Virus record (IMG/VR): IMGVR_UViG_3300002182_000344 | Span: 1 to 28,298 of that record | DNA length: 28,298 bases | Source of the DNA: a virus | Taxonomy: Duplodnaviria; Caudoviricetes | Reading direction: 5' to 3' (one strand) | Part shown: positions 1,908 to 26,717 of the stretch, piece after piece | How the letters are laid out: each line of letters opens with the position of its first letter | Numbering within the stretch: position 1 is the stretch's first letter | The notes under the pieces: model-generated | What the model saw: the letters and a program-made list of their open reading frames with translations, nothing else | Databases searched by the model: none | Told to the model about the DNA's origin: nothing | Program-made: the position numbers and the translations under genes

Positions 1908-2273
1908 ATGTGGAAACTAAAATATAAAACAGATTTTTCTGCAGCTCATAGTTTAAAAGAAACTAGTTCTTTAAAAACTTCTAAATGTAAAAATCTACAC
2001 GGACACAATTATTTTGTAGAGATTACAATTAAAACAAGTGAACTAGTTGATGGTATGGTTATTGATTTTAAAGAATTAAAAGAAATTATTGATGAATTGG
2101 ATCATAAATTTTTAAATGAATTTATTGAAAACCCGACTGTTGAAAATATCAGCAAATATATTTATGACAAAGTTTACGAAAAAATGAAAAAAAGAACTTT
2201 GTTTTTTAATTTAGAAGTAGAAATTAAAGAAACAGAAAATGGTTCCGTAATTTATAGTGAAGATAATTTATGA
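1908..2273 (+). CDS. queD: 6-carboxy-5,6,7,8-tetrahydropterin synthase
   Basis: FSAAH, CKNLHGHNY, GMVIDF, LDHKFLN, NPTVEN and ET motifs. Confidence 0.93.
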   Translation: MWKLKYKTDFSAAHSLKETSSLKTSKCKNLHGHNYFVEITIKTSELVDGMVIDFKELKEIIDELDHKFLNEFIENPTVENISKYIYDKVYEKMKKRTLFFNLEVEIKETENGSVIYSEDNL

Positions 2274-2890
2274 AAATAAAAGTATCTGAAATTTTTCAAT
2301 CAATTCAAGGAGAAGGTAAATTTTCTGGTTATCCGATGTTATTTATTCGCACTTATGGATGCACAAGAAAATGTTGGTTTTGTGATACTCTTTATAGTGT
2401 AGTAGGAGATAAATATCAAGAAGTTTCTGTAGATAAAATTGTTAAAATAATTAAAAAATCAAAGTTCAATTGTGTTGTTTGGACTGGAGGTGAGCCTTTA
2501 TTACAAAGAAAAGCAATTGAAAAAGTTATAAGTAAGACAAGAGATTACTATCATTATTTAGAAACAAATGGCGATTTATTAGAAGAAATAGATTTTTATT
2601 TATTTCATTATTTAGCAATCAGTCCAAAAGAAAAGAAAGTAGCAGAAAAAGTTAGAAATTTATCTTTGGAGTTTAACCCTGAAAGATGGGATATTAAAGT
2701 AGTGAGTGATTTAGAAAAAATAGGACTTGATATGATACCTTATGCAACAATGTTAATGCCTTTAACTACTTTTAAAAAGAAAAAAGATATTGAAATTTGT
2801 AAAAAGGTCTGGAATTATTGTGTAAAGAATAATATTAAGTTTAGCTCAAGATTACAGACTTTTATTTTCGGCAAGAAAAAAGGCATTTAA
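2270..2890 (+). CDS. queE: 7-carboxy-7-deazaguanine synthase (radical SAM)
   Basis: EIFQSIQGEG...FIRTYGCTRKCWFCDT, TGGEP, LETNG, ISPK. Confidence 0.93.
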   Translation: MKIKVSEIFQSIQGEGKFSGYPMLFIRTYGCTRKCWFCDTLYSVVGDKYQEVSVDKIVKIIKKSKFNCVVWTGGEPLLQRKAIEKVISKTRDYYHYLETNGDLLEEIDFYLFHYLAISPKEKKVAEKVRNLSLEFNPERWDIKVVSDLEKIGLDMIPYATMLMPLTTFKKKKDIEICKKVWNYCVKNNIKFSSRLQTFIFGKKKGI

Positions 2891-2897
2891 AAAAAAT

Positions 2898-3428
2898 ATG
2901 GATAAAATAGAAAAAGCAGTTTATACCATTTTAAAAGAAATTGGCGAAGATGTTAATAGAGAAGGATTAATAGAAACGCCAAAAAGAGTAGCCAGAATGT
3001 ATAGAGAAGTATTTTACGGATTAAAAGAAAAGCCGCCAGAGTTTAAAATTTTTAAAAGCGATAATGACCAAATGATTGTTAAGACATTTAAATGTTTTAG
3101 TTGGTGTGAACATCATTTAGTCCCCATAGAAATGAAAATTGCTTTTGCTTATATTCCAAATGGTAAGGTAACAGGAATATCAAAAATCATCAGAAGGATA
3201 AAATGGTGGTGTGCGAGACCAGTAATTCAAGAAAATTTAACAGATAATATAATTAAAGATTTTGTAAAAGAATTGGACCCGAAAGGGGCAATGTTAATTA
3301 TTAAAGGTCGGCATTTTTGTGAATTGATAAGAGGAGTAAAAACTGAGAGTTGGACAACAACTTCGGCAGTTTATGGAATATTTGAAAATTCAGTAGTAAA
3401 ACAAGAATTTTTATCTTTAATAAAATGA
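2898..3428 (+). CDS. folE: GTP cyclohydrolase I
   Basis: REGLIETPKRVA, SWCEHHLVP, GISK, QENLT, HFCELIRGV, TTTS. Confidence 0.95.
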   Translation: MDKIEKAVYTILKEIGEDVNREGLIETPKRVARMYREVFYGLKEKPPEFKIFKSDNDQMIVKTFKCFSWCEHHLVPIEMKIAFAYIPNGKVTGISKIIRRIKWWCARPVIQENLTDNIIKDFVKELDPKGAMLIIKGRHFCELIRGVKTESWTTTSAVYGIFENSVVKQEFLSLIK

Positions 3429-4435
3429 AACCTTTTTGCATTACGATAATACCTACAAGGAAATGTAATTTACGATGTGAATATTGTTCCATTAGAAATG
3501 ATAATTTTCCGAATGAATTGAATTGGAAAGAATGGGCTCGCTATATCAAAGAATTAGTGAAAAAAAATCCAAGTATTCAGTTTGTGTGTTTATTAGGAGG
3601 TGATATTTCAGTATGGGGAGAAAAACTGGTGAGTTTTTCTAAAAGAATGAAAGAAATTTTTTGGAATTTTACTACAAATGGAGTATTACTCAATGATGAA
3701 AAAAAGTTAAAAAAGTTAAGAAAAGAAATGGATAGTATTTCTTTAAGTTTGGATTCTTTGAAACCTAAAGAAGATGTATGGGAAAGACTAAAAAGTCAAA
3801 CAACTATTAAATTATTGCCTTTATTAAATAAATTAGGTTTTAGAGATTTGCATTGCACTATTACAATTGATAAAACTAATTTAGAAGAATTACCAGATTT
3901 AGTAAAGTTTCTTACCAAGAATAAAACTTGGGCAGAAATAACTCCTGTAATTTTTGGTAAGAATAAAAATTATGACTATGCTGCTTCTTTTGATGTTTTG
4001 AAAAAGAGATTATTTACAAAAAAAGATATACCAAAGATTAAAAAGATAATGTTAAAAATGGTTGAGATGAAAAAAGAAGGATATCTGATACATAATACAG
4101 ATAATTATCTTTTGAATTGGTCTAAATATGTAGTAAAGCAACAATGGAAATGTGGATATCCAATAAATCTTGTTTTTGATGCTGACGGGTCAGCAAGATT
4201 ATGTCTTCACGTCAAAGGAAAAAGAGTAGTTAAGCATAATATTAAAGATTTTAATTTTGATGATTTTTTAAAGGATTGGTATAAAGATTTTAAAGAACTT
4301 TGCAAAGGTTGTTATTGGAATTGTCAATATGAGCCAAAATATATTTATGAAAAGACAAAAGATTTAAAAGATATTAAAGATTATTTTAATCATAAAGTAA
4401 AATATGCAGAAAAGCATATCAAAGAAATTAAATAA
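3425..4435 (+). CDS. Radical SAM enzyme with C-terminal auxiliary Cys (SPASM/twitch-like), function unknown
   Basis: CNLRCEYC, GGD, TTNG, SLD, and distal C..C..CKGCYWNC. Confidence 0.8.
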   Translation: MKPFCITIIPTRKCNLRCEYCSIRNDNFPNELNWKEWARYIKELVKKNPSIQFVCLLGGDISVWGEKLVSFSKRMKEIFWNFTTNGVLLNDEKKLKKLRKEMDSISLSLDSLKPKEDVWERLKSQTTIKLLPLLNKLGFRDLHCTITIDKTNLEELPDLVKFLTKNKTWAEITPVIFGKNKNYDYAASFDVLKKRLFTKKDIPKIKKIMLKMVEMKKEGYLIHNTDNYLLNWSKYVVKQQWKCGYPINLVFDADGSARLCLHVKGKRVVKHNIKDFNFDDFLKDWYKDFKELCKGCYWNCQYEPKYIYEKTKDLKDIKDYFNHKVKYAEKHIKEIK

Positions 4436-5021
4436 ATGTTTAGTTTTATTTAGTGGAGGGATGGATAGCACGACTTTGCTTTATTGGGCTTTAAAAAAAT
4501 ACAATAAAGTTTATGCTATAGGTTTTGATTATAGACAAAGACATAAGATAGAATTGAAATATGCAAAAAAAATAGCAAAATTGAATAATGTTTCTTTTAA
4601 AATTTTAAAGGTCGATTTAAAGCAAATTGGAGGTTCTCTTTTAACAGGAAAATCTGGTTCAGTTGTGGTTCCGGGTAGAAATATGATATTTTTGTCTTTA
4701 GCTGTAGGTTATGCTATGACAAAAGATATTAAAGAAGTTTTCTTTTGTCCTACTCGGGATGATTATAAATTGTTTAGAGATTGTAGACCAGATTTTGTTG
4801 AAAAAATAAGTTTAGCGTCATTTACAGGATATGGAGTAAAGATTAAAGCTCCTTTTGTTAATCTTAATAAAAAAGAAATAGTTAAAATAGGTAAAAAATT
4901 AAATGTTCCTTATGAAATGACTTGGAGTTGTTATTTTCCTGTTAAAGGCAAGCCTTGTAATAAATGTTTAGCGTGTAAAAAAAGATATGAAGCCCTTACC
5001 TTTTACCAGATTATCAAATAA
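4404..5021 (+). CDS. queC: 7-cyano-7-deazaguanine (preQ0) synthase
   Basis: LFSGGMDSTT PP-loop, VPGRNMIF, DCRPDF, TWSCY...PCNKCLAC. Confidence 0.93.
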   Translation: MQKSISKKLNKCLVLFSGGMDSTTLLYWALKKYNKVYAIGFDYRQRHKIELKYAKKIAKLNNVSFKILKVDLKQIGGSLLTGKSGSVVVPGRNMIFLSLAVGYAMTKDIKEVFFCPTRDDYKLFRDCRPDFVEKISLASFTGYGVKIKAPFVNLNKKEIVKIGKKLNVPYEMTWSCYFPVKGKPCNKCLACKKRYEALTFYQIIK

Positions 5022-5349
5022 AGAGTTTTCGCCATTAATTGTAAGAAGATATAGTGAACCTTTTTTATTTTTTATTGTTTTGATTACTGATGATAATTTA
5101 GATAATTTAGATGATTTGGTAATAAAATTTATTAAGAAAAAAGATTTGCCTGAAACTATACAAGAATTTAGAAATTTTGCAGGAGAATTAAATAAATTTT
5201 TATTATCATCTTATCCGAAAACTGAAGGAATAGCAATTGTTATTTATGCAGATAAAATGACTGTCAGTAGTCTTTCAGGAGATTTTATGAATCACGAACA
5301 ATGTAGATTAGAGTTGTTTGGTTTGTTAAATTTTATGACAAAGGTATGA
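4987..5349 (+). CDS. Hypothetical protein within the modification operon
   Basis: 120 aa ORF overlapping both neighbours; no motif recognised. Confidence 0.5.
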   Translation: MKPLPFTRLSNKEFSPLIVRRYSEPFLFFIVLITDDNLDNLDDLVIKFIKKKDLPETIQEFRNFAGELNKFLLSSYPKTEGIAIVIYADKMTVSSLSGDFMNHEQCRLELFGLLNFMTKV

Positions 5350-5852
5350 AGTTTGTTATTATTGCTCCCCATCCAGATGATGAGTTGATTGGGTGTTTTA
5401 CATTGTTTCAAAAAAGACTTGTTAAAAAAGTATATTATATTCTTTCTGACTTAAAACGTCGTGTAAATGCTGAAATTCTAGGTAAAGAATGGGGATTTTC
5501 GACAGAATTTCTTACTTTTGATGAGTTTTTTAAAAAAAAATTAGTTTTTCAATTTGATGAAATTTGTTTAGTTCCGGATATTTTAGACAGACATCCTTTG
5601 CATAAAGCTGTTAGTGTTATTTCTAAAGCAAAGAATTACCCTCTTGGTTATTATACAACTGAAATGAATACAGGATATGTGAGAGAGTTAACAAAAAAAG
5701 ATCAGAAACTAAAAAAGAAAATGTTAGATAAATACTATCCCACAGAAAAATCTCTTTGGCAGTATGATTGGAAGTATTTTCTTTTTGAAGGTATAACGTT
5801 AGATTTATTGTCATATGATTTACATTTTGCCCCCACTTCCTGTAAAAAATAG
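5346..5852 (+). CDS. PIG-L/LmbE-family de-N-acetylase/amidase
   Basis: IIAPHPDDELIGC and HPLH (HxDH-like) metal-binding motifs. Confidence 0.8.
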   Translation: MKFVIIAPHPDDELIGCFTLFQKRLVKKVYYILSDLKRRVNAEILGKEWGFSTEFLTFDEFFKKKLVFQFDEICLVPDILDRHPLHKAVSVISKAKNYPLGYYTTEMNTGYVRELTKKDQKLKKKMLDKYYPTEKSLWQYDWKYFLFEGITLDLLSYDLHFAPTSCKK

Positions 5853-6774
5853 ATATAGTCAAGATTGGATTGATGTTTGGAAAAGAGAATTAAATAAATT
5901 GAAAGTAAATTATAAAATTATCGGGGAAGAGAAAGCTGTTGATTTGACATATTATTTTACTAATCCTATTGAAGCATTAAAATATGAATCAAAACAGATA
6001 TTAGAGTTAGTTAAGGTTTTAAAGAAAAAAGATAAGATTTTAGTTTTAGATACAGATTTCCCTGGTTTAATGGTTCCTGTTATACATTTACTGAAAAAGA
6101 TTTATAAGATAAAAGTTTACGGATATCTTCATGCTGGTAGTTGGTGCGAAAAAGATATTTACGAAAATATAAAAGGTAAAAAAGAATTGGAAGAATCAAT
6201 GTTTAAGACTTATGATAAGATTTTTGTTGCTACTAATTACCATAAAAGAAAAATTGAGAGTTATTTTCGTAAGAAATTTAAAAATATAAAAGTAGTGGGA
6301 TTTCCTTTTTATGAAGAAGATGTTTATAGGTATGTAAAGCCAATGCCATTTTCTAAAAAAACAAGGATAGTAATTGTAGGGAGACCAGAACAGAGTTATC
6401 AGAATATGTTAAAGAAACTTGTAAATCATAAAATGGCCCTTTTTGATAATAAAAGAATAGTTTTTTTGAAAGCAAATAATCGTAAAGAATATTTTAAAAA
6501 ATTAAATGAAGCAAAATTGGTTATTTCAGTTAAAAAAGAAGAAACTTTTGGACTTTCAATATTAGAAGCATATGTTTTAGGTTCTATTGTTTTATGTCCT
6601 AATAATTTTTCTTATCGAGAAGTAGTAAAAGACAAAAGATTATTGTATAATAGTTTAAAAGATTTAAAAGAAAAGATTAAAAAATACATAGTTTTAGATA
6701 AAAATGATTTTAAGATAAATATAAAGTCGTATAGAAAAACAATTTATAGGATTATTTATGATTTACGCCATTAG
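5815..6774 (+). CDS. GT-B fold (GT4-like) glycosyltransferase
   Basis: EETFGLSILEA (ExFG..E) motif, VGR, PNNFSYREVV, N-terminal HAGSW. Confidence 0.8.
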   Translation: MIYILPPLPVKNRYSQDWIDVWKRELNKLKVNYKIIGEEKAVDLTYYFTNPIEALKYESKQILELVKVLKKKDKILVLDTDFPGLMVPVIHLLKKIYKIKVYGYLHAGSWCEKDIYENIKGKKELEESMFKTYDKIFVATNYHKRKIESYFRKKFKNIKVVGFPFYEEDVYRYVKPMPFSKKTRIVIVGRPEQSYQNMLKKLVNHKMALFDNKRIVFLKANNRKEYFKKLNEAKLVISVKKEETFGLSILEAYVLGSIVLCPNNFSYREVVKDKRLLYNSLKDLKEKIKKYIVLDKNDFKINIKSYRKTIYRIIYDLRH

Positions 6775-7477
6775 AACAATAGGAAGAGAACAGCTTACGT
6801 CTTTACTTTCCTCAATCTTTTTTGTGGGAGTTAAAGGAAAGATTATTTTAGTCAATGATAGAGAAAGACTTAGCAATACTCAGTATTATCTTTTAGAGAT
6901 TTTAAAAAGAAATGGTTATCAGATAGAAATTGTAGAATTGAATAGTCATAATCCTGGTAAAGCTCTTTTTGAGATAGTAAAAAGACTTTATAATGAAAAA
7001 GGGTATGCTTTGATATTGGATGATGATGTCTTTTTTACAAAAAAACATTTAAAAGACATTTTAAAATATAAAGGTAAATACGATGTAGTTTGTTATTTAC
7101 AAAGATTTTTAAAAGAAGACGAGAATAAAGAATTATTGGAGCATAGCAAAAAAATTCCCGTAATAGACCCTTATTTTACATTGATTAATTTGGATAAACT
7201 AAAAAAAGTAGATTTTGAAAAATTTCAATTGTTAAATTTTATGTTTGGAATATCAGAATGGTTGTATTTTGGAAAATTGTTATTATTAGAAAGGCTGTCT
7301 TTTTTTCTTCTTAGAAAAGAAGATAGACCTTATCATATATATTTTTTTGAAGAGAAACCTTGGAAAATTTCATTTTTAGAGTGGAAAAAAGTAGTAGAAA
7401 AGATTTATAAAAGCAAAGATTTTTATGAATTGGCGATTAATTCATTAGAAGAAACAATGAAAGAAAAAATAATATGA
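6758..7477 (+). CDS. Divergent GT-A fold (GT2-like) glycosyltransferase
   Basis: IRTIGR, IILVND, and ALILDDDVFF (DxD). Confidence 0.6.
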   Translation: MIYAIRTIGREQLTSLLSSIFFVGVKGKIILVNDRERLSNTQYYLLEILKRNGYQIEIVELNSHNPGKALFEIVKRLYNEKGYALILDDDVFFTKKHLKDILKYKGKYDVVCYLQRFLKEDENKELLEHSKKIPVIDPYFTLINLDKLKKVDFEKFQLLNFMFGISEWLYFGKLLLLERLSFFLLRKEDRPYHIYFFEEKPWKISFLEWKKVVEKIYKSKDFYELAINSLEETMKEKII

Positions 7478-8985
7478 AAATATATTTTTCGGGAATGGAA
7501 GCCACTTCAGAAAATATTTTGAAAGATATTTATATTCCTTATGGAATGGTTTCTTATTATTTCTTAAGAGATAGAGATGAAACTAGCATTCTTGAAAAAC
7601 TGGTTAATTTTTATGGTATGGAGTTAGTTTGTGATTCTGGAACTGCTACTTTTTTAGGAATGGCTAACAAAAGTGAGGCTATACATAGAGAAAAAAAAGT
7701 TTTAATTAAAGAAGATTTAGATAAATATGTTTCTGAGTATGTAAATTGGCTTAAGAAATACAAAGATTATTTTCATTTTTATGTTGAATTAGACGTTGAT
7801 AAGCTTGTAGGTTATGAAAAAGTATTAGAATACAGAGAATTGTTTAAAAAAAATGGATTAAAAGATAAATTATTGGTTGTTTGGCATAGTACCATTTCAA
7901 TGGAAGAATACGAAAAAATGTGTCAAGAGTATAATTTTATTGGTATTGCCGATGAACCAGAATTGCCACGAATTAATGAATTATTTGAAATTGCTAAAAG
8001 ATACAAAAGGAAAATTCACGGTTTTGCTTTAACGCAGCCGAAGTATATTGAAAGATTCCCTTTTTATTCAGTAGATAGTACTTCTTGGAAAGCAGGGAGT
8101 AGATATGGAACTACTTATTACTTAAGGGGTAATCGCTTAGAAATGGTAGGTAATGATAATAAACTTTTTAGACAAAAACTTCAGAATTTTTCTTATTTCA
8201 GTTCATATAAAATTGATTGGGATAAAGTAATGGCTGATGATATTTACGAAGTTGATAAAGTAAATGCTATTACTTGGATAGAATATGGCAAGATATTAGA
8301 TAAAATGCAAGAAGAAAATCATTTGAAATATTGGGAAAGAACCGAAGAATCAAAGACCGAAGAAAGCATAGGTAGCACTCAAGGAACGACAGAGAAAAAA
8401 GGAAGGTTAGGCGACATTCAAGAGAAACTAAAAGACCCAGCAATAAGACAAAAATGGTTAGAGACAATGAAAGGAAATCTATTTCATTTAAAAACAGGGA
8501 AATATCTTAAAAGTCCTTTGCCTTTGTATTGTAATAATTGTTATGCTAAAGGAAAATGTCCTTTTTATCAAGAGCCAAAAGAAATAGGAGATAAAGTATT
8601 ATGTGCTCTTAGAGAAGATGTTTTTACCGATTGGTTTGGAGCAGATAATTTTGATTATAGGGAAGAAAGTACAGTCTTAGAAGCAAAGAATAAAATAGTT
8701 AAATATATGTTGCAAAGGTTAGGATTGCAGATGTGGTTTGAAGCCTTAGATGGAGGAATCCAAGATAAAGCTGCAACTTCATTAGCTACCGCAGTATATA
8801 ATATGTTAAAAGAAACTCCTACTATAAAGGTCGGAGGAACAGAAATTAACATAAATAAACAGATAGCGGTAGAAATAAATAAATTAGACGATGAAACAAG
8901 ACGAAAAATTATTCAATCTCTTGAACAACTTGAAACCAGCGGACAAGAAGGAGGTTCTCTTCCTTCTGAAGAATCCGCAGTTTGA
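7474..8985 (+). CDS. TGT/DpdA-like base-exchange transglycosylase fused to a putative terminase small subunit
   Basis: N-terminal ~280 aa carry DSG, ELD, VWH, IHGF and SVDSTSW. A polar linker follows, then KGNLFHLKTGKY, CNNC..C..C and a TerS-like tail (ININKQIAVEINKLDDETRRKII). The ORF overlaps the terL start. Confidence 0.7.
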   Translation: MKIYFSGMEATSENILKDIYIPYGMVSYYFLRDRDETSILEKLVNFYGMELVCDSGTATFLGMANKSEAIHREKKVLIKEDLDKYVSEYVNWLKKYKDYFHFYVELDVDKLVGYEKVLEYRELFKKNGLKDKLLVVWHSTISMEEYEKMCQEYNFIGIADEPELPRINELFEIAKRYKRKIHGFALTQPKYIERFPFYSVDSTSWKAGSRYGTTYYLRGNRLEMVGNDNKLFRQKLQNFSYFSSYKIDWDKVMADDIYEVDKVNAITWIEYGKILDKMQEENHLKYWERTEESKTEESIGSTQGTTEKKGRLGDIQEKLKDPAIRQKWLETMKGNLFHLKTGKYLKSPLPLYCNNCYAKGKCPFYQEPKEIGDKVLCALREDVFTDWFGADNFDYREESTVLEAKNKIVKYMLQRLGLQMWFEALDGGIQDKAATSLATAVYNMLKETPTIKVGGTEININKQIAVEINKLDDETRRKIIQSLEQLETSGQEGGSLPSEESAV

Positions 8986-10549
8986 AAGAAAACCTTGTGA
9001 TAGTTTTTATGAATTTGTTGACAATCCTTATTATTTAGGAGTTGGAAAAGATGTTTGGCGAAGAGTAAAAGAAGAAGGAGATAAAATATGGAAAGGTATT
9101 TTGGAAGGTAGATATCAAGAAGGAATTTGTCTTTGGGGTATAGGCTCTGGAAAATCTTTTTTAGCAGAAATTATTTCTTGTCTGTATGTTCATTACTTAC
9201 TATGTTTAGAAAATCCGCATAAATATTTTAATATGACAGATGATAAACCGATTGTAGTAGTAAATATGGGGACTAATGCAAGTCAAGCTAAAAATGTTAT
9301 TTTTGCTGGGATTAGAAGATTGATAGAAAATTCGCCATTTTTTCAAGAATATCAGCCAGAGATTTTACAGACTGAAATAAGATTTCCTAAAAAAAATATT
9401 GCTTTATATTGTGGTAATAGTCAAGAAACAATGCCAATTGGTTTAAATGTTATATGTGGTGTTTTAGATGAAGCAGCCTGGTATTTAGACAATGAAGAAA
9501 AGTCAATTGCTGAAAACATTTATAGCACAATGAAAAATAGAATTGTTTCACGCTTTGGAGATAAAGGATTTATCTTTGTAATTTCAGCTCCAAGGTATGC
9601 AGATGATTTTATTACCAGATTATATGAAAAAAGCAAAGGCAAAGATTATGTTTATGCAAGCTCTTTTAAAACTTGGGAAGTAAAAGATAGAGAAATGATG
9701 AAACAAGAAGAATTTGAATTTAACGCTGGAAACGAGATTTGGAAAGTGCCAATGGACTTTAAAAACATAGCCGAAGCCAATCCAGAAAAATTTATGAGAG
9801 ATTTTGGAGCAAAGCCAAGCATGGTTTTAGAAGCATTTGATAGAGACGCTGATATTGTAGAAAGAAATTACAATCCAAAAAGAGAAAGTCCAGTAGATGA
9901 GTTAGGAAGGTTTAAAGAATGGTTTAAAGCAACTGATAGTGAGCCAAGATATATCCATATTGATTTGGGATATAAAAAAGATGCTTGCGGTTTGGCAATG
10001 GGTAGATTTGATGGTTATGATGAAGTAGACGGAGAAAAAAGACCGAAAGTATATATTGATTTAATGCTTCAGATAAAGCCAAGTGAAACTTCTAAAGGAG
10101 AGGTTGTTTTTGAAGATGTTAGAAGAATAGTTTATAGCCTAAAAGAAAGAGGATTTAATATTGCTTTAGTTACCTTTGATGGATTTCAAAGTGTAGATAG
10201 TATTCAAATTTTAAAAGCCCATAGTATTAATGCTGAAGTTTTATCAGTAGATAGAGATACTAAGCCTTATGAAACTTTAAAAGAACTATTACATACAAAT
10301 AGAATTGATTTTTACAGGTATGAACCTTTTATTAAAGAATACAAAAGATTAGAATTAGTAAAAGGTAAAAAAGTGGATCATCCTTTGGGAGGAAGCAAAG
10401 ATGTTGCCGATGCTGTGGCAGCAGTATGCTATAATATTTGTCAAAGAAAAGTCAGTGGATTTTTTGAATATATCAAAACAACAAAGCCACAAGAACAAGC
10501 TTCAGAATTACAAAAATGGTATGAATTATACCGAAATCAAGGATTTTAA
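8891..10549 (+). CDS. terL: Terminase large subunit
   Basis: Walker A GIGSGKS, Walker B GVLDEAA, nuclease IHIDLG and VDHP..GSKDVADA. Confidence 0.9.
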   Translation: MKQDEKLFNLLNNLKPADKKEVLFLLKNPQFERKPCDSFYEFVDNPYYLGVGKDVWRRVKEEGDKIWKGILEGRYQEGICLWGIGSGKSFLAEIISCLYVHYLLCLENPHKYFNMTDDKPIVVVNMGTNASQAKNVIFAGIRRLIENSPFFQEYQPEILQTEIRFPKKNIALYCGNSQETMPIGLNVICGVLDEAAWYLDNEEKSIAENIYSTMKNRIVSRFGDKGFIFVISAPRYADDFITRLYEKSKGKDYVYASSFKTWEVKDREMMKQEEFEFNAGNEIWKVPMDFKNIAEANPEKFMRDFGAKPSMVLEAFDRDADIVERNYNPKRESPVDELGRFKEWFKATDSEPRYIHIDLGYKKDACGLAMGRFDGYDEVDGEKRPKVYIDLMLQIKPSETSKGEVVFEDVRRIVYSLKERGFNIALVTFDGFQSVDSIQILKAHSINAEVLSVDRDTKPYETLKELLHTNRIDFYRYEPFIKEYKRLELVKGKKVDHPLGGSKDVADAVAAVCYNICQRKVSGFFEYIKTTKPQEQASELQKWYELYRNQGF

Positions 10550-10824: not shown

Positions 10825-11847
10825 ATGGAAGTTAAAAAGATTTTAATAACTGGGGGATGTGGCTTTGTAGGACATCATTTTGTTGAGCATTTTCTCAAAG
10901 AAACAGACTGGGAGATAATTATTTGGGATAAACTTAGTTATGCTTCTAATGGATTTGATAGACTAAGAGATATTGATGTTTTTGATGAAAAAAGAATAAA
11001 AGTTTTGACAGTTGATATGAATTTACCTATTTCTGAAGGAATTAAAAAAGAAACTGGCGATGTTGATTATGTTATCAATTTGGCATCTGAAAGCCACGTT
11101 GACAATTCTATTGCTAATCCTGTTTCTTTTATTCAAAATAATGTTAATTTAATTTTAAATCTTTTAGAATGGGTAAGAGGTTTAAAGAATATAAAAAAGA
11201 TAACTCAGTTTTCAACTGATGAAGTTTATGGTCCAGCACCAGAAGGAACAGAATATAAAGAAGGAGATAGGCATTGTCCGAGCAATCCTTATTCAGCGAG
11301 TAAATCAGCTCAAGAAATGATTTGTCGGGCTTATGCTAATACTTATAAATTACCGATAAATATAACTAACTCAATGAATATTTTTGGTGAACGCCAGCAT
11401 CCAGAAAAGTTTATTCCTCTTTGTATTAGAAAAATTTTAAAAGGAGAAAAAGTGTTAATTCATTCAAATGCAGAAAAAACAAAAGCTGGTTCAAGGTTTT
11501 GGCTTCACGCAAGGAATATAGCAAAAGCGATACATTTTATTTTAGAAAAAACAGATGAAAGATTAGATAAATATGATGCTTCTAAAGGAGTTTTTAATAT
11601 TGTAGGAGAAAAAGAAATTGATAATTTGACTCTTGCTAAGAAAATTGCTGAAATTCTTGGAAAGCCTTTGAATTATGAAATGGTAAATTGGCACGAGAGT
11701 CGTCCTGGTCATGATCTTAGGTATGCTTTAGATGGCAGTAAATTAAAAAGTTATGGATTTGAATACCCGAAAACATTTGAAGAAAGTTTAAAAAAAACAA
11801 TAGAATGGTCGATTAAACCAGAAAATCAAAAATGGCTAAATCTGTAA
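10825..11847 (+). CDS. NDP-glucose 4,6-dehydratase (RmlB/RfbB-like extended SDR)
   Basis: TGGCGFVG, DKLSYA, ESHVDNS, STDEVYG, PYSASK, QHPEKFIP, RPGHDLRY. Confidence 0.9.
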   Translation: MEVKKILITGGCGFVGHHFVEHFLKETDWEIIIWDKLSYASNGFDRLRDIDVFDEKRIKVLTVDMNLPISEGIKKETGDVDYVINLASESHVDNSIANPVSFIQNNVNLILNLLEWVRGLKNIKKITQFSTDEVYGPAPEGTEYKEGDRHCPSNPYSASKSAQEMICRAYANTYKLPINITNSMNIFGERQHPEKFIPLCIRKILKGEKVLIHSNAEKTKAGSRFWLHARNIAKAIHFILEKTDERLDKYDASKGVFNIVGEKEIDNLTLAKKIAEILGKPLNYEMVNWHESRPGHDLRYALDGSKLKSYGFEYPKTFEESLKKTIEWSIKPENQKWLNL

Positions 11848-12794
11848 TTGTTTCACCAGTTCATAAACAGCCTTCTTTACGATGGATAGAAGCATTACCA
11901 AATGATGTTGATATTATTATTGTTGATGATAGTAATGGTAAAGTAAAAATAGATAAAGACAATGTAGAACTTTTTGATTATAAAAAACAACAAGAGGAAG
12001 CAAAAGATTTTTACCCTTTATTTGAATTGTTTCATAGGTCGGCTGCTTGTAAAAATTTTGGATTATGGCTGGCTTATAAAAGAGGATATGATGTTGTAAT
12101 TGTAATTGATTCTGATTGTATTTTACCGCTTAATTTTGTTGAAAAACATTTAGAAATACTGAATAAAAAGGCACAAGGTTGGGTAAATCCTTTAGATGGC
12201 ATAGATAATGGTAAATGGTTTTCGAGAGGATTTCCTTATTCTCAAAGAGAAAAAAGAATAGTAGTAAATATGGGATTATGGAGTTGGGAATTGGATATTA
12301 ACGGAGTAGATAAAATTGGGGAAAGCCTACCAAGATATGTTTTAGTATCAGAAACAAGAAGCGTTGTTGGTAAAATTCCTTTTTCTGGAATGAATTTCGC
12401 TATAAGAAGAGAAGTAATACCGGCTTTGTTATTTTTACCAAATTATGACTATAAAGAATTAAGATTTAGAAGACATGATGATATTTGGGGAGGATACATT
12501 ATGCAAAAATTGATTGAAAAAAGAAATGAAGCAATGACTTTTGGACCACCGATAATTTATCATGAAACAGAAGTAGATCCGATTGAAGATGCTATAAACG
12601 AGGAAGCAATGAATTTTTACTCAGATAGTTTTTATTCGATTGTCGATGAAATAATGAAAAAAGTAAGATTTGGAAGTTATCAAGAAATGTTTAAACAATT
12701 TGCAGATAATTGTTATTTATTTAAAAAAACAGTCTTTGAGCCATTTATCTATCCAATAAAAGAATGGAGTAAATTATGGCAGAATTTTCGGTAG
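11832..12794 (+). CDS. RGP / UDP-arabinopyranose mutase-like GT-A protein
   Basis: SAACKNFG, IDSDC, RGFPYS, NMGLW, PFSGMNFA and RHDDIWGG resemble motifs of the reversibly glycosylated polypeptide family. Confidence 0.75.
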   Translation: MAKSVIVSPVHKQPSLRWIEALPNDVDIIIVDDSNGKVKIDKDNVELFDYKKQQEEAKDFYPLFELFHRSAACKNFGLWLAYKRGYDVVIVIDSDCILPLNFVEKHLEILNKKAQGWVNPLDGIDNGKWFSRGFPYSQREKRIVVNMGLWSWELDINGVDKIGESLPRYVLVSETRSVVGKIPFSGMNFAIRREVIPALLFLPNYDYKELRFRRHDDIWGGYIMQKLIEKRNEAMTFGPPIIYHETEVDPIEDAINEEAMNFYSDSFYSIVDEIMKKVRFGSYQEMFKQFADNCYLFKKTVFEPFIYPIKEWSKLWQNFR

Positions 12795-13411
12795 TTTTAG
12801 TAACATTTAATAGATTAGATTTTACAAAACAGACGATTGATTCTTTTATCAAAACTTCGCCACCAGATTTTGAAATGATTATTGTTGATAATGCTTCTAC
12901 TGAGTCAGGATTTCAAGAATATTTAACAGAATTAGAAAAAGATAAAAGAATTAAAGTAATCAGAAATAAAACAAATTTAGGTTGGGGAGCGGCAGTAAAT
13001 ATCGGTTTAAAGTATTGCCATACAGAATGGATTTTATTATCAAATAATGATGTTATTTATAAAGAAGGTTGGTTTGAAAAATGTATTCAGGCTTATCAGG
13101 ATTTTTCAGAAATAGGAGTTTTAGGCTTGTGGAAGCATCCTTTTGCTCATACTACATTATTTGAAAAAGAAAGAGGAAGAACAAAGTTAGTTGTTAGAGA
13201 TTTAATGCCAGCAGTTGCTTGGTTTATGAAAAAAGAAGTAATTAAAAAGGTCGGTAAATTTTTTGAAGCAGGTCCTTGTGTCAATCCCGATGGGACACCG
13301 AGAAGAGGAGGTTGTGGAGAAGATACAGATTATAATCTTAGAGTAAGTCAGATTGGACTATGGAATTGTGGCTTAAAAGAAGATGTTGCTGTACATATAA
13401 CAAGGACATAG
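12776..13411 (+). CDS. GT2 glycosyltransferase
   Basis: VTFNR, IVDNASTE, NLGWGAAVNIG, NNDV, GEDTDY. Confidence 0.88.
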   Translation: MAEFSVVLVTFNRLDFTKQTIDSFIKTSPPDFEMIIVDNASTESGFQEYLTELEKDKRIKVIRNKTNLGWGAAVNIGLKYCHTEWILLSNNDVIYKEGWFEKCIQAYQDFSEIGVLGLWKHPFAHTTLFEKERGRTKLVVRDLMPAVAWFMKKEVIKKVGKFFEAGPCVNPDGTPRRGGCGEDTDYNLRVSQIGLWNCGLKEDVAVHITRT

Positions 13412-13417
13412 TTTAAG

Positions 13418-14320: not shown

Positions 14321-14324
14321 AAAT

Positions 14325-14567
14325 ATGAAATTAACTGAAAAAGAAATTGAAAAAATAAAACTTGATGCTTTAATAGAAAGAAGATTGCGGGAAATTCAAA
14401 CAATTGCTAACTTAGAAGTTGAAGTTAAATACTTTGAAAAATTAAGATTATTGCCTCAGGTTGATTCAAAAAAAGTAGAAGAAGAAATTAGTATAAAAAA
14501 AGCCGAAATAGAAGTTCATCAAGAAATAATAAAAATTTTAGATGAAGTAATTAACAAAAATGGTTGA
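14325..14567 (+). CDS. Hypothetical coiled-coil protein
   Basis: 80 aa charged helical ORF in tight operon spacing. Confidence 0.5.
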   Translation: MKLTEKEIEKIKLDALIERRLREIQTIANLEVEVKYFEKLRLLPQVDSKKVEEEISIKKAEIEVHQEIIKILDEVINKNG

Positions 14568-20520: not shown

Positions 20521-20630
20521 AGTAAGGTTTGACATCTATTTAATAGATGCGACCGCATTGACGGCTCAAATCTTACTAATATCAATCCGCGTTGATATTT
20601 TTAGATATTAGTAAATTTGAGCCGTTTTTT
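20521..20630 (+). promoter_or_regulatory. Structured 5' leader with terminator/antiterminator alternatives
   Basis: 22-bp stem 20561-20583/20604-20625 plus a T-run, versus the competing pairing 20521-20532/20566-20577. Confidence 0.7.
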
Positions 20631-20636
20631 AATAAA

Positions 20637-22298
20637 ATGAAAAATCCTTTTCTGAATTTTTTTAAAACTAAAATTGTTGAACCATCTGTAAGACCAATTC
20701 TTGAGGATCTCAAAAAGAAAGATGAGATTATTAAGGTTCAACAAGAAAAAATATCTCTTTTAGAAAAAGTAGGAAATGCTCCAATGCATTTTGCTACTCC
20801 TTTTGGAAGCACTCAAGATTCAATAGGACAAGATGTTTATAAATGGAAAAAGTCAGTTGATTTTAGAACCTTAAGAGAATTTTCAGAAAGGTATGATGTA
20901 GCAAGGGCTTGTATTAACAGAAGAAAAAGACAAGTAGAAAAAGCAGATTGGTCTATTATTCCAGTAGACCCGACAGAAAAAGCAGAAAAGTATCAAGAAG
21001 ATATTAAAAGAGTAAAAGCCTTTTTAGATATGCCGGGTGGAAAGTATACAAGATTTAGAGAATTTGTTGATGAATTGGTTGAGGATTTATTAGTGCTTGA
21101 TGCCGGAGTAGTTTATAAAGACAAAGAAGGAGGTAAGTTAAAAAAACTAATAACTGTAGATGCTGCCACGATTAGATTGAGAGTTTATGAAGATGGTAGC
21201 ACTCCAGAGCCTCCGGATATTGCTTTTGAACAATGGATTAGAGGAGAAAAAAAAGCAGAATTTACAACTGATGAAATGGTTTATTTAATGTTAAATCCTC
21301 GCTCAAATAGTCCTTATGGATTAGCACCTTTAGAAACTTTAATTTTAGGAGTAGATGCTGCTTTGAAATCTCAGTTGTATAATTTGAGTATGTTGTCAGA
21401 AGGCAATATACCAGAAGGATTCTTTACTTTACCAGAAAATTGGACGCCAGACCAGATTAAAGAATTTCAAAACTGGTTTGATGCTATGATTGCTGGCAAT
21501 CCGAGATTTCAATCAAGAATTAAGTTTATGCCAGGTGGAAGAGGAGTAGGATTTATACCAGCAAAGAAACCAGAAGAAATGAGATTTTTAGAATATGAAA
21601 AATGGCTTTTATTAAAAACTTGTGCTTTATTTGATGTTCCACCAGAAGAGATTGGATTTACAGAAGAGATGAGTAGAGCAACAGCTCAAGTTCAGCAAGA
21701 AGTTTCTACTCAAGCAGGTTTAGTGCCAATTTTACAGGTATTGAAAGAATTTTTTGATGATGTTATTCAAATTGATTTAGGTTGTCCATATTTACAATTT
21801 AGTTGGTATAGTTTAGATAAAAAAGATGAATTAAGAGACGCTCAGATAACTGAAAGATTAATACCATTAGGATTGATTTCAGGAGATGAATGGAGACAAC
21901 AGAATGATTTACCACCAATTGGCTTGAAACACTATATCATGACATCATCAGGACCAATTTTTGTAGAAGACTTATTAAATGGCAGAGCTCCTAATCAACA
22001 GCAAACTTTACAAGAAACAAGAATAATTACCGAATTGGCTCAATGGGAAAGAAAATGTTTAAATAGTCTAAAAGAGGGAAAAAAGTTTAAACCTTTTCAA
22101 AGTAAATTTATTCCAGAAGATGTTAAAAAGCTTATTAATGCTCAATTGTTATTTGCGAGAACAAAAGAAGATGTTAAAAAGATTTTTGAAAAACAAATAC
22201 AAATAGCAAAACAAGATTTAGTAATACAAAAAGCAGTGAAATTAAAAGAAGAAATAGGCGAGACAGTCAGACAATATGCGACAAGTATTAAAAATTGA
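20637..22298 (+). CDS. Portal protein
   Basis: NPRSNSPYGLAPLE, GNIPEG, FDVPPEEIG, DEWRQQNDLPPI, and position before MuF/protease/capsid. ATG 20637 preferred over TTG 20592, which lies inside the leader hairpin. Confidence 0.88.
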   Translation: MKNPFLNFFKTKIVEPSVRPILEDLKKKDEIIKVQQEKISLLEKVGNAPMHFATPFGSTQDSIGQDVYKWKKSVDFRTLREFSERYDVARACINRRKRQVEKADWSIIPVDPTEKAEKYQEDIKRVKAFLDMPGGKYTRFREFVDELVEDLLVLDAGVVYKDKEGGKLKKLITVDAATIRLRVYEDGSTPEPPDIAFEQWIRGEKKAEFTTDEMVYLMLNPRSNSPYGLAPLETLILGVDAALKSQLYNLSMLSEGNIPEGFFTLPENWTPDQIKEFQNWFDAMIAGNPRFQSRIKFMPGGRGVGFIPAKKPEEMRFLEYEKWLLLKTCALFDVPPEEIGFTEEMSRATAQVQQEVSTQAGLVPILQVLKEFFDDVIQIDLGCPYLQFSWYSLDKKDELRDAQITERLIPLGLISGDEWRQQNDLPPIGLKHYIMTSSGPIFVEDLLNGRAPNQQQTLQETRIITELAQWERKCLNSLKEGKKFKPFQSKFIPEDVKKLINAQLLFARTKEDVKKIFEKQIQIAKQDLVIQKAVKLKEEIGETVRQYATSIKN

Positions 22299-23190
22299 AA
22301 AATCATTAGATAGATTTTTAAAAGCAGTAAAAGTAAATCCTACATTATATAGTTTAGAAAGAAGCAAAAAGTATAAAGAAGTAAGAAATGAATTAGAACA
22401 GGCATTTCTCATTCAAGCATCGCAACTTTTAAGAAGTGAAATTATTAAAGAAATAGATGAAAAAATTAAAGTAAATGAAAATACAATTTGGACAGAAGCA
22501 CACGAAAGACAGATAAAAGATATTATATCAAAGCACTTTAAAAGTTTAAGAAATTTCATTTCATTGCCAAAGATAAGAGATTTTTATTTATGGCTCGCAA
22601 ATAAAGGAGGACAAAGTTTCTTTGATAAGATAAGAGTAAAAAGATTTAAAAAAGTAAATATTATTGGAGCAACATTTGATTTAAAAGATACAGCAATGAT
22701 AGCAGAATTGATGAATGGAGTAGACTTGCTAATTGATAATTTGGATGATACGACCGAACAATGGTTAGTTAATCAGTTTATTCAAGGAAAAAAACAAAGA
22801 TTAAGTAGTTATGATATTGCTAATTTGATTAGAGAAAAAATTCCTGAAACTTATGCTTATCGAGCTGATACAATAGTTGCAACAGAATCAGAAAATATTG
22901 TTAATCAGATGGAATTTGAAACAGCAAAAAGAAATGAAGCAACAGCTAAGAGATGGGTAACGGCTGGAATGAATGTTTGTGAGTTATGTATGATGAATGA
23001 ACAAGCAGGTTGGATAGGAATAGATGCTTCTTTTCCGAGTGGTCATTTAAGACCGCCAGTACATCCAAATTGTAAATGTCTTTTAGAATATGAAATACCG
23101 CCTTATATTTCGGGCTATGGTTGGACTGGAAGAGAAGAAAAACCTACTTCTGAACCCAAGAATGTCTTAGAAGACAGAAAAAAATTTTGA
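22276..23190 (+). CDS. Head morphogenesis / minor head protein (Mu gpF / SPP1 gp7-like)
   Basis: RADTIVATE, KRWVT, VCELC, PPVHPNCKC. Confidence 0.85.
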   Translation: MRQVLKIEKSLDRFLKAVKVNPTLYSLERSKKYKEVRNELEQAFLIQASQLLRSEIIKEIDEKIKVNENTIWTEAHERQIKDIISKHFKSLRNFISLPKIRDFYLWLANKGGQSFFDKIRVKRFKKVNIIGATFDLKDTAMIAELMNGVDLLIDNLDDTTEQWLVNQFIQGKKQRLSSYDIANLIREKIPETYAYRADTIVATESENIVNQMEFETAKRNEATAKRWVTAGMNVCELCMMNEQAGWIGIDASFPSGHLRPPVHPNCKCLLEYEIPPYISGYGWTGREEKPTSEPKNVLEDRKKF

Positions 23191-23723
23191 GACAGACGTT
23201 TGGTGTAGATGATTTAAAACAAGTAAATGATGATGAATTTAAACGAGAAATTAGAAAGATTATGAGAGATTTTTAATACAGAGAATATGATTTCTTTGAC
23301 GTGGCTGAGGATTGGTTTAGAGGTGAAAGAGAAGAAACAAAAGATTATATGAAAGCCTGGTTAGAACTTAATCCAAAACATAGATTAGGTCAGTTAATAA
23401 ATATGCAAAAATATACAGAGTTTAAAGATATTTCTCCGAAAGAATTTTTGGAAAAAGAAATTACTGTTTACAGAGGTATCGGAGCAAAAGAGTATGATAT
23501 AGAAGCAGCAAAAGCGAAGACATTTGAATCGTTTACACTTTCAAGAGAAAAGGCTATAGATTTTGTTGAAAGATATTCGAACAAAGGAGATTTAGTTACA
23601 ATTGTAGAAGCACGAATTAAAGTTATTGATATTCTTGGATTTAATAATACAATGTCAGAAAAAGAAGTTTTTGTAGATGTAAACAAGGTGAAAGATTTAA
23701 CTATAAAAAAATTTATAAGATGA
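23187..23723 (+). pseudogene. ADP-ribosyltransferase-like (R-S-E) domain: probable disrupted MuF C-terminal extension, or separate gene from GTG 23301
   Basis: ITVYRGIG, FESFTLSREKAIDF, SEKEVFV. The same frame extends upstream through one TAA (23274) to overlap the MuF end in the -1 frame. Confidence 0.55.
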
Positions 23724-23857
23724 CACAGATACCTACTTTTGATGAATATCTTCATAGGAAAAACAGAAAACAAAAAAAACTGTCTCGGAAATTTTATTGG
23801 TCAAAGATTAAAAAATTCTATCAAATTTTTAACAAAAAAGGTTTAAGTATTAAATAG
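23720..23857 (+). CDS. Small basic ORF (45 aa)
   Basis: ATGA overlap with the ART-like ORF; MTQIPTFDEYLHRKNRKQKK...; below the ORF-track cutoff. Confidence 0.3.
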   Translation: MTQIPTFDEYLHRKNRKQKKLSRKFYWSKIKKFYQIFNKKGLSIK

Positions 23858-23871
23858 TTAAATAAAATTTT

Positions 23872-24345
23872 ATGCCAATTCCACAACCTAACCCAGATGA
23901 AACAAAAAAAGATTTTATCTCTCGATGTATGGGAGATAAAGTAATGGTAAAAGAATACCCAGACAATTCTCAAAGATACGCAATTTGTCTTTCATCTTGG
24001 AAAAAAGGCAAAAAAGCAAAATTTGTTCATTATTTTAGATGGAAAGTTTTTAGTAAAGTAGTTTCAAAATATCAAGATTTGTTGAAACTTCAAAAAATTA
24101 CTGTAGAAGAAAGAGATAAGTATTGGAGGGTAAGAATTAAAGACCCAGACTATTTTGACCCGAATAGTTTAAGAACGATTGATATTAATGATGCAGGAAC
24201 AATTAGGGCTATAACTGGGTGCCCCAAAGGAAAGTTTAGCGGGGGAAAATGTTCAGTAGGGGTAGAAATTCAGGCTTATCTATTTGATGTTGATACTTTT
24301 ACAAAAGATGAGGCAAAAAAGTGGGTAGAAGACCATAAAGGTTAA
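23872..24345 (+). CDS. Head-module hypothetical protein
   Basis: MPIPQPNPDETKKDFISRCM and RVRIKDPDYF...FTKDEAKKWV, segments of a type seen next to phage prohead proteases. Confidence 0.6.
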   Translation: MPIPQPNPDETKKDFISRCMGDKVMVKEYPDNSQRYAICLSSWKKGKKAKFVHYFRWKVFSKVVSKYQDLLKLQKITVEERDKYWRVRIKDPDYFDPNSLRTIDINDAGTIRAITGCPKGKFSGGKCSVGVEIQAYLFDVDTFTKDEAKKWVEDHKG

Positions 24346-24366
24346 TTTTAAAATATAAGAACTTAT

Positions 24367-25686
24367 ATGTTAAAAAATGAATTAAAATTTTATATTCCAA
24401 TTCAAAAAATAGATAAAGAACAGCGGATGGTTTATGGCTACGCTACTACTGATGCTGAAGATAGTCAAGGTGAAATTGTAGAAATTGATGCAGTTAAAGA
24501 TGCTTGGGATGATTATTGGAAATGGGCAAATATTAGAGAAATGCATCAATTGTCAGCAGTTGGAGTAGGTAAAGAATATCAGTTTGATGATAAAGGAGTT
24601 TGGATAGGGGCAAAAATAGTTGATGATAACGCTTGGAAAAAAGTTAAAGAAGGAGTTTATAAAGGTTTCTCAATTGGTGGAAGAACATTAGAAAAAAAAG
24701 AAAATAGAATTAAAAAGTTAGAAATAGATGAAATTAGCATTGTTGATAGACCAGCCAATCCAGAAGCAGTTTTTACAATTATTAAAAGATATGATAAAAA
24801 AAGCGAGAATTTATTATTAAAGGTCGGCTCGCTTATAGACAAAATTAAAAATCAAAAAAATAAAATGGAAAAAGAACTTGAAAAATACAGAAGGAAAACA
24901 GACTCTAAAGAGGAAGAGTCAAATGTTTCTGAGGAACAATCGGCTACTTCTGAATCTGCTGAAAAACCAACAGAAGAAAAACCGACAGTAGAAAATAAAG
25001 AATTTGGAACAGTTCCTCGGGAGCAGGCGACTGTTTCTAATATAGTTTATAAACAAGATGATGAAGAAGATAATCAAGATAATGAAGAAAACGATCAAGA
25101 AAATGATCAAGAATTGGATGATGATTTAGAAGAAGAAGCAATCAAAGAATTTGCCAGTAATTTAAGCTTACTGGTTGAAATTCTTGAGAAGAAAAATGCT
25201 TCTTCTAAGAAAATTGGAGTTTTAAAACAGATATTAGATTTACTTAGACAACTTGAAGAAGGAAATTTTGATGGAGAAAATCCAGATGAAGGAATGACAA
25301 GTGAAGAAAAAGTAATGAAAGTAATCAAGACAGAATTATCAGGTATCACCCAAAAGGTTGTAGACTCTCTCGCTAAAGTAGAGACAGACATATTGTCTCT
25401 AAAAGAGCGAGTTGAGAAATTAGAAAGACAACCTAGAGGGAATAGGCCGGTAGCTTCTTATCTTATTGAAAAAGGAGAAAAAGAAGAAGCTAAATCGGCA
25501 GATACCATAAAGAAAGAATTGGCTGAAATAGAAGAAGAGATTGAAAAGATTCACAATGAAGGAATGGTTTTACTTTCCAATCCCGACCCGGTCAAGCAGG
25601 GAGAATTGGAAAGAAAACTAAGAGACATAGAAAAAAGATATAATGAAAAAAAGCTTGAATTAAGAAAGGTCGTTTACGGAATTTAA
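24367..25686 (+). CDS. Prohead protease (XkdF/HK97-like) with C-terminal scaffold
   Basis: DSQGE, IREMH, KGFSIGG, EISIVDRPANP, followed by an acidic and coiled-coil region. Confidence 0.87.
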   Translation: MLKNELKFYIPIQKIDKEQRMVYGYATTDAEDSQGEIVEIDAVKDAWDDYWKWANIREMHQLSAVGVGKEYQFDDKGVWIGAKIVDDNAWKKVKEGVYKGFSIGGRTLEKKENRIKKLEIDEISIVDRPANPEAVFTIIKRYDKKSENLLLKVGSLIDKIKNQKNKMEKELEKYRRKTDSKEEESNVSEEQSATSESAEKPTEEKPTVENKEFGTVPREQATVSNIVYKQDDEEDNQDNEENDQENDQELDDDLEEEAIKEFASNLSLLVEILEKKNASSKKIGVLKQILDLLRQLEEGNFDGENPDEGMTSEEKVMKVIKTELSGITQKVVDSLAKVETDILSLKERVEKLERQPRGNRPVASYLIEKGEKEEAKSADTIKKELAEIEEEIEKIHNEGMVLLSNPDPVKQGELERKLRDIEKRYNEKKLELRKVVYGI

Positions 25687-25703
25687 TTAAAAATTTAACT
25701 AAA

Positions 25704-26717
25704 ATGAATACGCAAAAAATAGTAGAACCAGAGGTTCTAAAAGCTTTAATTAACGAAGAACACACTTTAGCACAGATTGCAGAGGCAATTAGAAAGGCTG
25801 CAGTAACTACTAGTACTTATACTTTTTCGCCAGCTACAAGAAGCATTTTTGTAGCAGAGAATTTAGACCCAGTTGTTAAGTTAATTGTTCCGACTGCTAC
25901 GCCTATTAGAAGTCTTTTACCAAGAAAGGCTGGTAGTGGACAAGCAACAGCTTGGAAGAAATTAACTTCAAAATTGAATTATAGTACTACTGGATCAGCA
26001 ATTACTTTTGCTGATGGAGGAGTGCCAAATGAAACTACTCAGACTTACCAAGTTGTAACAGCTGCCTATAAATTGTTAGGTAGAAAAGTAAGTGTTGGTT
26101 TATTGCATGTTGCTGCTTCAAAGGATTATTTACCAGTTGAAGATGAATTGATTAGGATTAAGACATTAGAAGTAATGCTTGGTGAAGAAGAATTGATTAT
26201 TAATGGTGATAGTAGTATCGATCCTAATGCTTTTGATGGTTTGTTAAGACAGATTACTACTAATAGTGCAACTGCTTCATTTTTAACTGCCAGTGGTATT
26301 TCTGCTTATGACCAAACCATCTTTGAAGCAGGTGGTGCTGCAGACCATTTATTCCTTGGTCCAAGACAAGCAAGAGCTTTAGCAGATGAACTACAGCAAA
26401 CTGGTTCAATCCAAAGAATAATTGTCTCCGATCAAACAGGTGCTATTGCTTATCAAAAAGTATCAGCTATTGTCAGTGCAGTGACGGGTAAGACAATCAA
26501 CTTGGTGACTTCCAGATATATGGGAAGTTGGGCAATTCTTGGACAGATTAAATCAGACGCAGGAGAGAATTATGTTGAAATGGAAGATTTAATTCCATTG
26601 ATTAAGATGGATGTTCCAACTACTAGTTTTGCTAAAGATAGTTTCATTGTTGAAGCTACTGTTTTGAAGTTAATTGCAGAACCTTACTGGTATAAAATTG
26701 GCGGATTAGCCACATAA
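25704..26717 (+). CDS. Major capsid protein (HK97 fold, inferred)
   Basis: Position after the protease; TPIRSLLPR, EEELIINGD...FDGLLRQI; distinct Ala/Thr-rich composition. Confidence 0.85.
   Translation: MNTQKIVEPEVLKALINEEHTLAQIAEAIRKAAVTTSTYTFSPATRSIFVAENLDPVVKLIVPTATPIRSLLPRKAGSGQATAWKKLTSKLNYSTTGSAITFADGGVPNETTQTYQVVTAAYKLLGRKVSVGLLHVAASKDYLPVEDELIRIKTLEVMLGEEELIINGDSSIDPNAFDGLLRQITTNSATASFLTASGISAYDQTIFEAGGAADHLFLGPRQARALADELQQTGSIQRIIVSDQTGAIAYQKVSAIVSAVTGKTINLVTSRYMGSWAILGQIKSDAGENYVEMEDLIPLIKMDVPTTSFAKDSFIVEATVLKLIAEPYWYKIGGLAT

Follow-up and report, generated by a model that had tools for sequence, protein, structure and literature searches.

The window analysed here, an entire virus contig of 28,298 bases without tail genes and most replication genes, carries a single 503-aa gene in which a domain of the DpdA base-exchange family, predicted to swap guanine for preQ0 in phage DNA, is joined to a Cys4/hairpin module that is likely a small terminase (TerS); the gene stands directly before that for the terminase large subunit (terL). 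On balance we favor a bifunctional DpdA-TerS, whose fusion would direct preQ0 exchange, late in infection, to phage DNA that has yet to be packaged. The gene order runs from a Holliday-junction resolvase through queD, queE, folE, a second radical SAM gene, queC, and three or four sugar-related genes to the fusion, and continues with terL, a glycosyltransferase/nucleotide-sugar block, a DNA methylase, and the portal, minor head, protease, and capsid genes, so that the window carries a tailed-phage head module. Its main features are as follows.

1908..2273, + strand: queD (PF01242, phrog_2389)
2270..2890, + strand: queE (phrog_2076, E 1.5e-32)
2898..3428, + strand: folE, GTP cyclohydrolase I (PF01227, E 3.5e-53)
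3425..7477, + strand: second radical SAM (3425-4435), an unknown 120-aa protein, and PIG-L-like, GT4, and GT2 genes (profile matches)
4404..5021, + strand: queC, preQ0 synthase (TIGR00364, 170.7 bits against a cut-off of 150.3)
7474..8985, + strand: putative dpdA-terS fusion gene, 503 aa (phrog_887 over aa 1-462, E 8.6e-40; 21 near-full-length homologues)
7474..8337, + strand: DpdA/TGT barrel, aa 1-288 (Foldseek, CAjan DpdA profile match, invariant residues)
8338..8400, + strand: disordered linker, aa about 289-309 (pLDDT below 50 at aa 293-313; variable across the aligned sequences)
8530..8604, + strand: Cys4 motif C353/C356/C362/C377, a predicted Zn site (putative metal binding)
8665..8811, + strand: long helical hairpin with the E423..DGG turn, predicted oligomerization core (models; homology to the C-terminal part of Gordonia "TerS")
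8845..8937, + strand: two-helix C-terminal tail, aa 458-488, predicted TerL-docking element (match to the tail of the L157 slot protein)
8891..10549, + strand: terminase large subunit, terL (phrog_17415, E 9.8e-9; 354 relatives among viral contigs)
20592..26717, + strand: portal, minor head protein, prohead protease, and major capsid (Pfam and PHROGs)

The first-pass annotation had read the fusion as one uninterrupted ORF of 503 aa, and the ORF at 7474-8985 (+) bears this out, as do the motifs claimed for it: D54-S55-G56, E105-L106-D107, I181-H182-G183, and S199-W205 (SVDSTSW) in the front half, and G334-Y344 (GNLFHLKTGKY) with cysteines C353, C356, C362, and C377 in the C-terminal half. The proposed overlap with terL (8891-10549) is exactly 95 nt, and the terL ATG sits within codons D473-E474 of the fusion gene. 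An assembly artefact is ruled out, the identical protein being present on four contigs and 21 of 85 non-self homologues being near full length (at least 90% query coverage, 28-66% identity). An AlphaFold model built from an alignment of 29 of 86 sequences shows a barrel modeled with confidence through residue 288 or so, with pLDDT mostly 85-97 in 10-residue blocks, followed by a C-terminal half of lower confidence. In the barrel the window protein shares 52-53% identity with its two closest homologues, and in the module 91-93%; the GC content is 0.28 for the barrel part vs. 0.33 for the module part; these contrasts indicate that the halves have different histories.

The front half and the preQ0 genes

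Fold, catalytic residues, and adjacent preQ0 genes together support the earlier proposal of a DpdA-like base-exchange domain. In a Foldseek comparison of the barrel model, the best PDB matches are TGTs (E 1.9e-5), and the validated CAjan DpdA matches the profile of these barrels with an E of 7e-32; a PDB sequence search with the barrel, carried up to E 10, had no TGT among its matches. CAjan residues D63, S64, H132, F189, and D206 (whose roles are described in PMC7544227) align with D54, S55, H138, F184, and D201. In the HMM alignment CAjan D105 corresponds to D107 of the ELD motif, but MAFFT places it in a gap column; CAjan F67 and G153/G154 have no exact match in the window barrel. D54, D107, H182, and D201 are invariant in all 29 aligned sequences. 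Homologues from the phages BCD7 (YP_007005872) and BRock (APC46298) are listed as DpdA in the PMC6884629 supplement.

The genes folE, queD, queE, and queC adjoin the fusion (Pfam, PHROGs, and TIGR00364), and the enzymes they encode form the pathway from GTP to preQ0, as set out in PMC10516641. QueF, ArcS, and Gat-QueC gave no match in the window, so preQ0 would be the default substrate. A related locus, L008, has a preQ0-transporter-like gene (Vut_1; L008:3662-4378) upstream of its fusion and no que synthesis genes detected in the locus, which suggests base salvage.

The barrel closely resembles that of phage DpdA1 (CAjan gp35; PHROG 887), which has the same TGT fold, the same catalytic and base-binding residues, and folE/queD/queE/queC as neighbors. 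CAjan DpdA is, however, a stand-alone protein of 306 aa encoded beside a polymerase, in a phage with a separate TerS, whereas the window barrel continues into a module that occupies the terS slot. The same C-terminal module is present in the DpdA proteins of BCD7 and BRock, but these fusions lie far from terL. The bacterial DpdA/DpdB system (Salmonella Montevideo, PDB 7UI4) shares the predicted double-displacement chemistry; as described in PMC10164549, bacterial DpdA is part of a restriction-modification island and depends on DpdB, a ParB-like ATPase, whereas no such partner was detected in the window.

The C-terminal module and the terS slot

In the models, residues 310-490 form a module of their own, in which a region with four cysteines is followed by a long helical hairpin, some short strands, and a tail of two helices. 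TerS proteins are built from a DNA-binding head, a helical-hairpin core, and a C-terminal strand and tail. Each cysteine is present in 27-28 of the 29 aligned sequences, and the Cys4 pattern recurs in 144 of the best 150 profile matches. AlphaFold places the hairpin helices at 398-425 and 432-446; they are the same in a separate domain model, which comprises the Cys4 region, the hairpin, two short strands, and the tail helices (mean pLDDT 70, pTM 0.39). The family is large: with E values up to 0.001, the module matches 1,299 clusters (50% identity), and among the best 150 matches 44 have the barrel, four a partial barrel, and 102 (some of them fragments) no barrel.

Comparison with known small terminases gave a mixed picture. 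The window protein matched no TerS profile in Pfam, PHROGs, or further profile searches, and no solved TerS appeared among the PDB sequence matches or VIA-align rows, a result compatible with membership in the family; BFVD returned no TerS row except Gordonia Jumbo (E 0.39), and structure comparison of the module found generic hairpins only (best Z 6.8). T5 TerS was rejected as a relative (Atlas score 0.82, below the bar; local profiles at most 4 bits). So was the idea that the Cys4 motif is the structural zinc site of a TGT, the motif being positioned past the disordered linker and also found as a separate gene. P0087-P0089, which come without genomic context and may be fragments, were left out as stand-alone modules.

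A clearer link is to the "TerS" proteins of Gordonia and Rhodococcus phages (GTE7 gp1, Woes gp6, Jumbo gp6, ReqiDocB7 gp1+gp2; PHROGs 6902 and 16015), which have a homologous Cys4/hairpin C-terminal part. The module of a homologue matches 111 phage records, mostly Gordonia, many of them annotated as small terminase, and HHalign of the module against the C-terminal parts of seven such proteins gave 97.4% (E 1.3e-11; reversed control 0.75%). Like the window fusion, these are two-part proteins of 455-535 aa encoded immediately upstream of terL, where the gene is the sole one in that position or a split pair. They differ in their front 270 aa, which are without profile similarity to the barrel (HHalign 0.2% for the seven front halves). 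A degenerate barrel in the Gordonia front half found no HMM, HHalign, or Atlas support, the one sign of it being a Foldseek match of the whole protein to Jumbo (E 7.7e-4), and a GTE7-to-PaMx25 TerL match with an E of 0.5 was taken as chance. The Gordonia labels appear to rest on gene position, so the homology supports a TerS role for the module without proving it.

The position of the window gene points the same way. As the first-pass annotation had noted, there is no other terS candidate in the window, which covers only part of the phage genome, by Pfam (37 ORFs), PHROGs (30 ORFs), or the slot-tail profile (75 ORFs). We compared 89 loci selected by TerL, namely the best 80 of the 354 relatives in the window family plus nine new ones from a second family; several of these begin within terL and so show no upstream gene. 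The slot before terL holds the fusion in seven of the 89 and a barrel-free module in three (L215, L218, L221), and in eight the order is dpdA, ParB, a separate slot protein, and terL, with a DpdA that has no module. When 24 slot proteins were compared with PHROGs, ten matched TerS families, nine of them families other than that of Gordonia. In the TerL tree, branches with fused forms alternate with branches that have stand-alone slot proteins, which indicates that the slot is mosaic; deep nodes of the barrel and TerL trees are weak, and we claim no evolutionary direction from them.

The tail of the module also resembles that of other slot proteins. The closest TerL (L157, 76% identical) is preceded by a slot protein of 156 aa that weakly matches DUF5681 and has the same terL overlap, and its tail aligns with aa 458-500 of the window protein at an E of 1.5e-9 among 38 sequences, a value inflated because part of the tail (from aa 473 on) is dual-coded with terL. 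A similar tail lies entirely outside the terL overlap in four of 13 hand-picked slot proteins, and with a profile of these 13 tails the fusion protein scores best among the 75 window ORFs, albeit at a weak 7.7 bits (E 0.022). Within the overlap (8891-8985), the encoded TerL N-terminus itself resembles the TerS tail pattern (L..L...D/E++.+...L), in the same register in L157.

When TerL 1-340 was modeled in complex with the module, the score was 0.42, and the best of three controls gave 0.00. Of the reference pairs, 116 of 157 solved complexes and 2 of 215 mismatches attain the mark for such scores, and scores that attain it without exceeding 0.60 are found for only 18 of the 157 solved complexes and for both mismatches. 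The runs have at least 65% of their contacts in common, with a partner pLDDT of at least 51, and weakly suggest that the module may dock on TerL. Taken with the slot, the homology to annotated TerS proteins, and the shared tail, this makes the C-terminal half likely to be a small terminase, as first proposed; against it, these searches gave no match to a solved TerS.

Departures from the usual form were also seen. In L160 (2494-4029), a fused homologue preceding terL, all four cysteines are lost and the hairpin and tail are kept, which indicates that the Cys4 site is dispensable in some homologues. An HNH-type domain, in the barrel's stead, is fused to the module in L140 (5401-6471; PHROGs) and, judged by eye, in P0161, P0178, P0189, P0192, P0212, P0213, and P0221. 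The barrel-free modules directly before terL (L215:2986-4035, L218:752-1771, L221:2049-3068) instead carry a 200-aa front part of unknown family.

Fused, split, and displaced forms and what they imply

The 80 loci selected by their barrel comprise 11 fused, six split, and 63 without the module. Eight of the 11 fused genes lie directly before terL, in company with several TerL and portal families; the other three, and all six split pairs, do not. In 50 loci selected by the module, a set with many near-duplicates that is biased by search patterns (two narrower alignments) drawn from DpdA-linked copies, a barrel is present in every case, fused in nine and as a separate upstream gene in 41; terL is adjacent in only eight of the 50, and none was detected in the flank of the 41 separate forms. 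The split forms are located within queC-dpdA-module-queD-queE clusters. In BCD7, BRock, BS162P1, L009, L017, and L056 terL is far from the module, which stays beside dpdA even where the pair sits tens of kb away from terL. The module is thus tied to DpdA at least as tightly as to terL, a tie to be expected of a TerS that also serves DpdA, and likewise of a DpdA accessory. Four of five records searched have a TerL of the same family as L053, in which the fusion precedes terL, and inspection of five remote-module phages plus BCD7 found no shared ORF preceding terL, so the TerS of these phages may be a displaced one.

In the bifunctional DpdA-TerS that we favor, FolE, QueD, QueE, and QueC would produce preQ0 from GTP, and the barrel would exchange it for guanine after replication, with D201 as nucleophile and D54 as acid/base, by the chemistry of CAjan and Salmonella DpdA (the latter's catalytic mechanism is treated in PMC10164549). 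The Cys4/hairpin module would oligomerize and bind phage DNA, and its tail would dock on the ATPase domain of TerL, as the complex model tentatively indicates. The fusion would thereby set the timing and place of modification, with several barrels per TerS oligomer on concatemeric phage DNA, and exchange would probably take place ahead of packaging or as it is initiated, not one base at a time during translocation.

The most serious alternative, which we nonetheless regard as unlikely, is that both halves work, independently, as DpdA and TerS, neighbors in a locus of the ParB-Tls type having been joined incidentally. Fused, split, and separate arrangements do all exist, fused forms turn up in scattered places on both the barrel tree and the TerL tree (many nodes of which are weak), the different histories of the two halves are in keeping with such a joining, and 63 of 80 barrel-selected loci lack the module. 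Chance adjacency does not, however, predict a module that remains beside dpdA at tens of kb from terL.

In another reading the module would be a DNA-binding or oligomerizing accessory of DpdA, perhaps derived from a TerS, that has lost its packaging role, with the true TerS encoded elsewhere. The presence of DpdA in 50 of 50 module-selected loci and of split forms inside the que clusters agrees with this reading, which we nevertheless judge to be quite improbable: a module without a recognizable barrel directly precedes terL in L215, L218, L221, and the Gordonia phages, the tail is held in common with slot proteins and the TerL complex points weakly to docking, and an alternative TerS shared among the remote-module phages and BCD7 was not apparent before terL.

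The first-pass annotation had gone further than the bifunctional reading, placing the enzyme on the translocating motor, where it would modify or check DNA as it enters the head and leave replicating DNA unmodified. The DpdA-type domain and the likely small terminase behind that proposal stand, and the fusion does occupy the terS slot; the coupling to the motor does not hold up well, the module being often split and far from terL and in-line exchange probably too slow, and we give it little credence. Packaging motors translocate hundreds of bp each second, a time in which a TGT-family enzyme completes far less than one turnover, so that the two differ by orders of magnitude; several phages can also translocate their DNA without TerS. 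In-line exchange is less likely because of this gap in rates. In DpdA1 phages up to 30% of G is modified (PMC10516641), and the CAjan DpdA gene is separate from its TerS. In its favor, modification during packaging has been predicted for ParB-Tls loci (PMC6536676 and PMC4738411).

Finally, the database label "queuine tRNA-ribosyltransferase" and the best solved folds, which are tRNA TGTs, might suggest a tRNA enzyme, or an inactive barrel in a protein of which the TerS role alone matters, but the sequence profile picks up a DNA enzyme of validated activity and none of the solved tRNA TGTs, the catalytic Asp residues are invariant in 29 of 29 sequences, and the preQ0 genes are adjacent, making this reading very improbable indeed.

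The ParB-Tls comparison bears on what is new here. In those loci DNA-modifying genes lie just upstream of the terminase genes, as they do in the window, and the fusion described in PMC6536676 and PMC4738411 is of ParB to a methyltransferase, whereas in the window it is the TerS-slot module itself that is joined to the enzyme; ParB_N had no match among the 37 window ORFs (Pfam), and ParB is present in eight related loci. Packaging-linked modification has already been proposed in print, and the conserved fusion is a variant of known parts. A search of the full-text literature, which takes in few subscription journals, found no description of a DpdA-TerS fusion, and "terminase" and "packag" are absent from the main text of PMC6884629 and from PMC10516641.

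On how phage DpdA selects phage DNA and on its timing, the published record states only that exchange follows replication, and a natural fusion to a likely small terminase makes the packaging-linked modification proposed for ParB-Tls loci directly testable, in cultured phages with fused (BCD7, BRock) and split (BS162P1) forms. If correct, the bifunctional DpdA-TerS would give BCD7-type phages, in which no obvious terS lies beside terL, a candidate for that role, and would account for the unusual length of the "TerS" in many Gordonia phages. A broader and more speculative extension, toward which we are inclined to be skeptical, is that a widespread and so far unrecognized Cys4 small-terminase family doubles as the targeting subunit of 7-deazaguanine modification, the mark being written, and perhaps read as a cutting license, at packaging initiation, with the pair staying together away from terL.

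Sugar-related genes around the fusion

Glycosyltransferase-like genes recur directly upstream of the fusion, in the window (3425-7477) and in L007, L010, L014, L017, and L056, and the window set also includes the second radical SAM and a PIG-L-like gene. Those preceding the fusion may further modify the deazaguanine base, and the genes at 3425-7477 are, by position only, possible hypermodification enzymes. The terL-portal interval of the window (10825-18011) has five or more glycosyltransferase-type genes, plus one each for a nucleotide-sugar epimerase/dehydratase and a cytidylyltransferase (Pfam), and this block may serve glycosylation of virion proteins or DNA. Two short ORFs with NUMOD3 motifs, at 14735-15010 and 18008-18259, are possible remnants of homing endonucleases.
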